Notes: generated by a model from the sequence alone, not told the origin. A stretch of DNA of 32,882 nt from a virus (IMGVR_UViG_637000265_000004), one strand, 5' to 3'. Shown: positions 13,049-13,471, counted from the stretch's first letter. A program made the numbers and translations.

Positions 13049-13135
13049 AGGAGACCATAGTCTAGGATGACACTTACTACAGACCTGTGTGGTCATGTTT
13101 TTGACTCATAGTTTTCTCTACTTGTCAAGGATAAT

Positions 13136-13158
13136 TAATACGACTCACTATAGGGAGA
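13136..13158 (+). promoter_or_regulatory. Exact T7 RNA polymerase consensus promoter (-17 to +6)
   Basis: TAATACGACTCACTATAGGGAGA, 23/23 match to the T7 class III consensus; flanks do not match cloning-vector context. Confidence 0.8.
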
Positions 13159-13255
13159 AGGGACACAAAAAGTTTTCTCTTCTAGGATGACACTTACTAC
13201 AGACCTGTGTGGTCATGTTTTTGACTCATGGTTTTCTCTACTTGTCAAGGATAAT

Positions 13256-13278
13256 TAATACGACTCACTATAGGGAGA
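13256..13278 (+). promoter_or_regulatory. Exact T7 RNA polymerase consensus promoter, second tandem copy
   Basis: TAATACGACTCACTATAGGGAGA. Confidence 0.8.
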
Positions 13279-13471
13279 AGGGACACAAAAAGTTTTCTCT
13301 TCTAGGACAACTAACCGTAACTTATCGCATCCTTTCAGGGGCGGGATGACCAATTACAGACACCAAGCGTTCTACTTAAAGTGAATGCTTCCTGTGTGCT
13401 CTGGGTCAGTCGATAAGTGAATAGCAATAAGACACAATCATCTTAATTATGGTCTCTAGTCCCTACAGGGG

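Follow-up and report, generated by a model that had tools for sequence, protein, structure and literature searches.

Why would a bacterial chromosome carry exact promoters for the RNA polymerase of phage T7? The question is raised by a stretch of DNA of 32,882 nucleotides (IMGVR_UViG_637000265_000004; the whole stretch, as analysed, is called the window), which is probably part of the Shigella flexneri chromosome and in which TAATACGACTCACTATAGGGAGA, the T7 class III consensus promoter, occurs twice. Our analysis suggests that these promoters probably represent the control region of an integrative island of 4-7 kb, satellite-like for virulent phages of the T7 group and switched on by the RNA polymerase of a helper phage; from its features we infer that such islands depend on a helper, replicate, and are packaged. 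The promoters lie within a short tandem repeat:

13061..13307, + strand: 120-bp tandem repeat (Tandem Repeats Finder, TRF: 2.1 copies, 99% matches), one promoter per unit
13136..13158, + strand: T7 class III consensus promoter, copy 1, exact (23/23), from -17 to +6, with the +1 G at 13153
13256..13278, + strand: T7 class III consensus promoter, copy 2, exact (23/23), with the +1 G at 13273

A preliminary description of this DNA had reported the exact 23-mer at two sites, within 120-bp units that differ by one base. Scanning the sequence confirmed this; the single difference is an A at 13110 and a G at 13230, and the flanking sequences, GTCAAGGATAAT upstream and AGGGACACAAAAAG downstream, are as that description gave them. 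Its argument that a 23/23 match is very unlikely by chance also holds: none of 100 dinucleotide-preserving shuffles of the window contained a match to TAATACGACTCACTATAGGGAGA, and there is no third site in the window with up to 3 mismatches allowed. In the T7 genome (NC_001604), the identical 23-mer is found at phi6.5, phi9, phi10, phi13, phi17, and phiOR, and when the comparison is extended past the 23-mer, phi13 agrees over the longest stretch, with 27/27 bases. The specificity bases at -11 to -8 are GACT, which is T7-type; the corresponding bases are CCCT for the T3 polymerase, GGCA for K11, and GTGA for SP6. From this sequence, we predict that T7 RNA polymerase would initiate at the +1 G of each copy.

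The preliminary description had not noticed that the promoters belong to a small island, whose integrase gene lies immediately upstream:

11255..11329, + strand: tRNA-Gly(TCC) (ARAGORN), the last of a prophage tRNA cluster and the attachment site of the island on its left (attL) side
11444..13048, + strand: integrase of the island, a tyrosine recombinase of 534 aa whose N-terminal region is long (Pfam Phage_integrase, E=4e-18, and DUF6538; PHROG integrase, E=2e-44)

At 99% identity, the integrase matches a protein cluster of Shigella flexneri with 769 members, and its family is distributed across Enterobacterales. Homology to islands of E. coli and Klebsiella begins immediately 3' of the tRNA-Gly in the window. 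In these relatives, the integrase and control region are found at the chromosomal tRNA-Gly beside actS; given that this tRNA and the one in the window have only their 3' end in common (GGTTCGATTCCC...GCCCGCTCCA), the integrase appears to need just that core.

To describe the island in its intact form, we examined 17 loci from species-representative genomes, several E. coli genomes, 22 metagenome loci, and assembly contigs. The islands, whose hosts are Enterobacterales, are bounded by an 18-27-bp direct repeat of the 3' end of tRNA-Gly and are 4.2-7.3 kb in size. The relatives insert at tRNA-Gly through their own tyrosine integrase, and the window retains attL and the integrase gene. The gene order is constant in the 17 genome and 22 metagenome loci:

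Positions 1-3: integrase; often an open reading frame (ORF) of ~215 aa that overlaps the integrase stop codon (FAM4); a control region of ~1 kb
Position 4: DNA-binding regulator from one of four interchangeable families (Rha, KilA-N, and two others)
Positions 5-8: ORF of ~63 aa; ORF of 136-165 aa (DUF6971 or FAM6); ORF of 326-402 aa (FAM3); right attachment site (attR)

Two of these genes connect the islands to T7-like phages or to capsids. FAM4 is the defence protein PD-T7-4 (PADLOC, E=8e-99; also Pfam DUF4145), encoded directly 3' of the same integrase family in many relatives. PD-T7-4 came from a selection for E. coli DNA that confers resistance to T7, and its gene 'often overlaps an integrase gene' (PMC9519451, in which 'T7 promoter' is not mentioned). 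Renamed RAZR, it is a zinc-finger/HEPN RNase of the abortive-infection kind, which becomes active as it assembles around the T7 or T3 portal ring (PMC13017515, in which 'integrase', 'island', and 'satellite' are not mentioned). The islands thus share with the published locus the gene itself, whose activity against T7 and T3, triggered by the portal, is established by experiment. FAM3, conserved across genera, is modelled as a capsid-like protein with the HK97 fold. Structure prediction was the sole informative method for this protein; by sequence, Pfam, PHROGs, PADLOC, phmmer and hmmsearch against the Protein Data Bank (PDB), and hhalign against T7 gp10 were all negative. DUF6971, whose gene lies just before that of FAM3, corresponds to SF216, an orphan protein of S. 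flexneri with a crystal structure (5EUR). It combines a small head with long charged helices, and has no structural neighbours besides its own structure. Its gene position and helix content lead us to guess at a role in scaffolding. No polymerase gene was found in the islands.

The cargo genes are not tied to one integrase. In two metagenome loci (L044 and L053), the same module of promoter, leader, and cargo accompanies an integrase only ~30% identical to that in the window, and a circular element described below (L035) has no tRNA-Gly core at its junction; these cases indicate that the cargo module has moved between integration modules. In several islands, there is also a very short hydrophobic ORF (~23-45 aa) after the capsid-like gene (4805-4942 in L035; 20953-21024 in L002) whose product could be a small membrane peptide, for instance a toxin or a holin.

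In every locus with enough flanking sequence, we found promoters of the form N10-CACTATAG-GGAGA after the integrase gene, usually in two clusters. The 83 promoter 23-mers from 33 loci fall into at least 13 classes defined by positions -12 to -8, including T7-, K11-, and Kayfunavirus-type promoters and others, and 20 of the 33 loci have two or more classes. Klebsiella elements, for example, combine the K11-type AATTAGGGCACACTATAGGGAGA with T7-type promoters and AATTAGGTAGCACTATAGGGAGA. The K11-type 39-mer matches 163 phage genomes, 154 of them from Klebsiella phages, with 7-9 sites per genome. For the Citrobacter-type promoter, the matches are in phages of the Kayfunavirus type from Escherichia, Salmonella, Enterobacter, and Citrobacter.

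Elements of E. coli and Shigella have the promoters in 1, 2, or 3 copies. Among 17 copies from diverged elements, the 24-mer TTAATACGACTCACTATAGGGAGA does not change, while its flanks do. In L030 and L031, it lies three bases 3' of the RAZR stop codon, and the flank upstream is unrelated. An invariant core on varied flanks is what selection for recognition by a phage polymerase predicts, as opposed to chance or hitch-hiking. Together with the other phage-polymerase promoters at this position in relatives, these data bear out the earlier proposal of selection for a T7-type single-subunit polymerase.

The match between promoter and host is imperfect, because the Proteus class best matches the promoters of vibriophages; that promoters are host-matched in every case was not upheld. 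In the Proteus cibi island (L015, at 8851 and 9479), the class is AATTAACCCACACTATAGGGAGAC, and its best exact matches are T7-like Vibrio cholerae phages (27 records); either matching Proteus phages have yet to be sequenced, or this class is common to distant hosts. At 16505-16535 in L001, there is a degenerate second T7-like promoter, AATCAATACGACTTACTAATAGGAGA, with five mismatches, in an insertion relative to the window; it occupies the place of the second promoter cluster of other islands, a cluster that the window lacks. At the end of a Lonsdalea contig from a metagenome-assembled genome (L005, 10052-10118), ...AATAACGACTCACTATAGG is followed directly by CTGTCTCTTATACACATCTCCGAGCCCACGAGAC, which we take to be an untrimmed Nextera adapter; that copy of the 'promoter' is thus partly artefactual.

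Between the promoters and the first gene in the window there is ~0.9 kb of noncoding, repeat-rich DNA, with these features:

13300..13470, + strand: conserved noncoding block of ~170 nt (...ATCGCATCCTTTCAGGGGCGGGATG...GGTCAGTCGATAAGTGAATAGC), with 80-100% identity in E. coli, Klebsiella, Rouxiella, and other islands
13473..13608, + strand: AT-rich array of TTAACTTAAAG-type repeats (TRF)
13628..13656, no strand assigned: palindrome GGTGAT...ATCACC closing the AT-rich region, read from the sequence and conserved in L001, L002, L004, and L035
13661..13882, + strand: short direct repeats CTATAGGTCTCTCT, CTCTATGGCC, and CCTAGAGAGAC, GGTC-rich (TRF)
13942..14026, + strand: leader RNA hairpin directly 5' of the ribosome-binding site of the first gene (minimum free energy -41.2 kcal/mol; z = -2.8 in the window)
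14043..14197, + strand: 5' stub, 51 codons long, of the gene for a Rha-family regulator, which heads the promoter-driven operon (Pfam Phage_pRha, E=7e-9)

The preliminary description expected transcription to run rightward into the repeats and a Rha-like gene. Consistent with this, no intrinsic terminator separates the promoters from Rha in the control region, and sigma-70-like sites are not in excess (3 compared to 2.5 expected). In the island, the operon lies behind exact promoters for a single-subunit phage polymerase, with no host promoter in evidence. The Rha assignment is real, and an intact Rha protein (from L002) matches the window at 14076-14198 by tblastn, but what remains in the window is merely the 51-codon stub. 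L002 is the intact T7-type island of E. coli 21AR0133 (NZ_CM132251, 975043-982384), which also contains an IS5.

The layout of the control region recalls that of T7 replication origins. At the primary origin (phi1.1A/phi1.1B) and the secondary origin (phiOL) of T7, as in the island, one or more promoters are followed by an AT-rich region with ACTTAAAG motifs, and the tandem phi1.1A/phi1.1B promoters are echoed by the tandem promoters of the island. Work on cloned T7 origins from the Richardson laboratory reportedly found that the T7 replisome needs no more of an origin than a T7 promoter followed by an AT-rich region, and the layout of the island is compatible with this. For the AT-rich array of the island, the count of TAAAG is 8 compared to 1.9 expected, and the array aligns at the level of motifs with the AT-rich region of phiOL, the AT-rich region of the primary origin, and the left-end repeats of T7, with scores of 38, 38, and 34 against shuffle means of ~19-23, reached by 1, 1, and 0 of 300 shuffles; this likeness is suggestive only, because the shuffle is crude and the query is repetitive. 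Motifs of the primase type (GGGTC/TGGTC/GTGTC) are enriched on both strands relative to Markov-1 simulations, with counts inflated by the repeats. There are also differences: the AT-rich array of the island starts ~195 nt after the second promoter, whereas that of T7 follows directly, and the island promoters lie on bacterial DNA with no homology to T7 past the promoter itself. By analogy, we regard the AT-rich array as a candidate replication-origin or packaging-related region.

The leader is the most widely conserved noncoding element and is kept in nearly all loci despite the differing families of regulator that follow it. The hairpin has 30 pairs, with 98.3% of cells in the alignment paired compared to 41-54% in slid controls, and contains six compensatory pairs, a number reached by 1 of 500 shuffles. 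It is rich in G.U pairs, which are compatible with RNA from the + strand alone. Long hairpins before genes are the RNase III sites of T7, and the leader precedes the first gene of the island likewise; in position and form it recalls these processing sites, by analogy only. Searching the control region against Rfam yielded nothing but a sub-threshold match to a miRNA, and we rejected a known RNA family for this region on that basis.

Does the island exist outside the chromosome? One relative, L035, was assembled by MEGAHIT (k141) as a contig of 6,628 bp whose ends overlap exactly over 141 bp, which implies a circle of 6,487 bp containing the whole element, including the conserved block at 13300-13470, and no tRNA. 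A SPAdes contig from another analysis in the European Nucleotide Archive (L036) matches it with 100% identity along 6,464 bp and reads across the end junction of L035. The overlap and the junction together indicate that this relative exists as a circle or a tandem array, the form expected if an element is excised or replicating, although it does not prove packaging.

These observations suggest how the island might work. It would be silent until a T7-type phage infects the cell. T7 shuts off host transcription after infection and brings its own polymerase, and at that point the island promoters would fire. The operon, consisting of the regulator, the capsid-like protein, and the other ORFs, would then be expressed through the leader, which would be processed, and replication of the island would probably be primed at the promoter and AT-rich region, as at T7 origins. 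The capsid-like protein may build small particles, or it may redirect or poison assembly of the helper capsid; the outcome would be transfer of the island, interference with the phage, or both. The copy number of the tandem promoters (1-3) could tune strength or dosage, and the mixture of promoter classes could widen the range of usable phages to several genera. A broader proposal, in which we have about as much belief as doubt, is that the islands form a widespread, unrecognised family of capsid-encoding mini-satellites of strictly virulent T7-group phages, in which a multi-helper promoter array serves for ignition and probably as a T7-type origin, with RAZR/PD-T7-4 as an accessory gene.

Given that the 23-mer is the sequence used in expression vectors, the promoters could in principle have come from a laboratory vector through contamination or an assembly artefact, and the preliminary description had noted that finding the 120-bp unit in a laboratory vector or an ordinary T7-like phage genome would point to contamination or a phage fragment. 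That check was negative. The unit has no match among 72,556 plasmid records. It is present in 63 of 5,426 complete E. coli genomes, invariably on the chromosome and at the same locus, as well as in Shigella contigs and metagenomes, and the same position holds other polymerase specificities in other genera; the wider integrase and control region is found in 388 of the 5,426 genomes. We therefore reject contamination from a vector, whose probability we consider close to nil. Descent from an integrated T7-like (Autographiviridae) prophage, or capture of a piece of a T7 genome, is also highly improbable. T7-like phages with integrases do exist, and here an integrase gene adjoins T7 promoters, repeats of the TAAAG type, and, in relatives, a gene for an HK97-fold protein. 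Yet matches to the 120-bp unit in phage genomes are confined to the promoter core, blastn of 11330-14197 against 50,697 phage records returned no match, and short-word blastn of the noncoding DNA at 13049-14042 against T7 found the promoter as its sole match, so that homology to T7 is limited to 23-27 nt. Moreover, intact elements are complete at 4-7 kb between their att repeats; they lack genes for an RNA or DNA polymerase and for portal, tail, and terminase proteins, and the profile of their capsid-like protein is unrelated to T7 gp10 (hhalign probability 0.2). Homology searches and gene content together effectively refute an origin from a T7 fragment or T7-like prophage.

The most serious alternative is a pure defence island without transfer, where the phage promoters act as an infection sensor and the invading polymerase expresses proteins that interfere with the phage: the regulator, a short hydrophobic peptide, and a decoy with the HK97 fold by which capsid assembly is poisoned, beside constitutively expressed RAZR, with the whole spreading as an ordinary integrative element. 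We judge this to be rather unlikely, though far from negligible. It would account well for the presence of RAZR/PD-T7-4, a proven anti-T7 system, within the same island, for the failure of our searches to find a terminase, portal, or pac-like sequence or any evidence from viromes, and for short variants (L001 and L029-L031) that have the promoter, the regulator, and a 157-aa ORF and no capsid-like gene. It sits less easily with a full-size HK97-fold protein that is conserved across genera and whose gene follows an ORF of possible scaffold type, or with a complete 6.49-kb circular or tandem form; the origin-like layout and the promoter arrays of several classes fit the exploitation of several helpers at least as well as they fit defence. 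The two explanations overlap, because known satellites routinely combine interference and transfer.

Several observations weigh against a satellite of T7-group phages. The model of the capsid-like protein is of moderate confidence (predicted local distance difference test, pLDDT, 70.5) and its best matches are encapsulins, so that a non-virion shell or a decoy is possible; the short variants lack the gene altogether. No terminase, portal, or recognisable excisionase was found in the islands with Pfam, PHROGs, and PADLOC. Comparison of the control region with the ends and packaging sites of T7 revealed no homology above the level of motifs, nor did we find likeness to any phage end or packaging site, and the pause and concatemer-junction signal of T7 class II, ATCTGTT, is absent. 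The resemblance of the AT-rich array to origins is itself at the motif level, with the crude shuffle and repetitive query noted above, and this AT-rich, origin-like layout is absent from control regions of the Kayfunavirus type. The Proteus promoters point to vibriophages rather than Proteus phages. A tandem array could also yield the circular assembly, and two scans of viral contigs gave prophage calls from isolate genomes or nothing, which lends no virome support to packaging.

How does an island that is satellite-like for T7-group phages compare with known satellites? In the P4/P2 pair, satellite genes answer to the transcription machinery of the helper through reciprocal transactivation of late promoters, and P4 uses activator proteins that work on host RNA polymerase. 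In the islands described here, by contrast, the element acting in cis is a promoter for the single-subunit polymerase that the helper itself encodes, and there is no homology to P4. Capsid-forming phage-inducible chromosomal islands (cf-PICIs, e.g. EcCI2) and the Ccm system of SaPIbov5 are much larger than 4-7 kb; the portal, head-tail connector, and small terminase of cf-PICIs were not found in our islands with Pfam, PHROGs, and PADLOC, which leaves the HK97-fold protein alone. The presumed helper also differs, being a virulent T7-type phage, and promoters for its polymerase take the place of a circuit of repressor and antirepressor. The islands resemble in part the PICMIs (phage-inducible chromosomal minimalist islands) of Vibrionaceae, which are described (PMC10803314) as minimalist islands of ~6 kb with an integrase, associated with virulent phages, packaged as concatemers, and without capsid-remodelling genes. 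Relative to that description, our islands differ in having a capsid-like gene, Enterobacterales hosts, and phage-polymerase promoters, and Pfam scans revealed no PICMI-like domains.

Satellites and defence islands are a known kind of element. What appears to be new is control by arrays of promoters for the helper's single-subunit polymerase, the link to virulent T7-group phages, and the minimal gene set that includes a capsid gene. To our knowledge, no satellite of T7, the textbook virulent phage, is known. A full-text search of the literature, whose coverage excludes most subscription journals, found no description of natural chromosomal islands with T7 promoters or of satellites of T7-like phages. 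If our reading is true, strictly lytic phages that shut off their host can be parasitised by satellites, and infection can be sensed by a new principle, in which it is read through the polymerase of the invader and the sensor works after host transcription has been shut off. The islands also provide a genomic and evolutionary setting for RAZR/PD-T7-4 and a natural catalogue of orthogonal phage-polymerase promoters paired with host genera. In practical terms, expression systems based on T7 RNA polymerase, and T7-like phages used in therapy, could elicit a response from strains with islands, such as the 63 complete E. coli genomes in which the T7-type unit is present.

The copy in the window has itself decayed, a truncation that the preliminary description had missed along with its location in a prophage remnant. 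The island is cut by an insertion sequence (IS):

14198..14966, no strand assigned: IS1 truncating the island, a 769-nt repeat 100% identical to 8542-9310 and 23443-24211, with another IS directly after it

This copy retains in intact form its integrase, both promoters, the control region, and the leader, and has lost the operon from Rha codon 52 on. There is no attR (second copy of the tRNA 3' end) in the window, RAZR is missing from this variant of the island, and no island cargo beyond the Rha stub was found anywhere in the window. Because IS1 has taken Rha from codon 52 onward and attR is absent, this copy is most likely a non-mobile relic, judging by its sequence. The Shigella copies that we examined (L021) all have the same truncation, with promoter copy number varying from 1 to 3. 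During infection by T7, the promoters of the relic would still fire, with transcription reading into IS1.

Upstream of the island, the tRNA cluster at 11019-11329 (Met, Arg, Thr, and Gly(TCC)) follows a segment of a lambdoid prophage with DUF1367, YbcO, and a Q-type antiterminator at 10155-10829; this prophage region also contains a 23-bp tandem repeat (1.9 copies) at 2032-2076. The window as a whole is a mosaic of IS elements: three identical copies of IS1, two copies of an IS with a 272-aa ORF, and an element of the IS66 family, as well as a duplicated tail-fibre-assembly segment. Repeated or IS segments include 14967-15266, identical to 31445-31744; 17961-18260, similar to 27366-27665; and 24586-27225. 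This mosaic fits a Shigella chromosome after IS-mediated rearrangement. Its other contents include the sit operon, as annotated in relatives, and, on the - strand at 28287-29942, a gene for an E3 ligase effector of the type III secretion system, of the IpaH type, with NEL and leucine-rich repeat (LRR) domains; 60-bp tandem repeats (TRF, 29448-29654) fall within the LRR-coding part of this ipaH gene.
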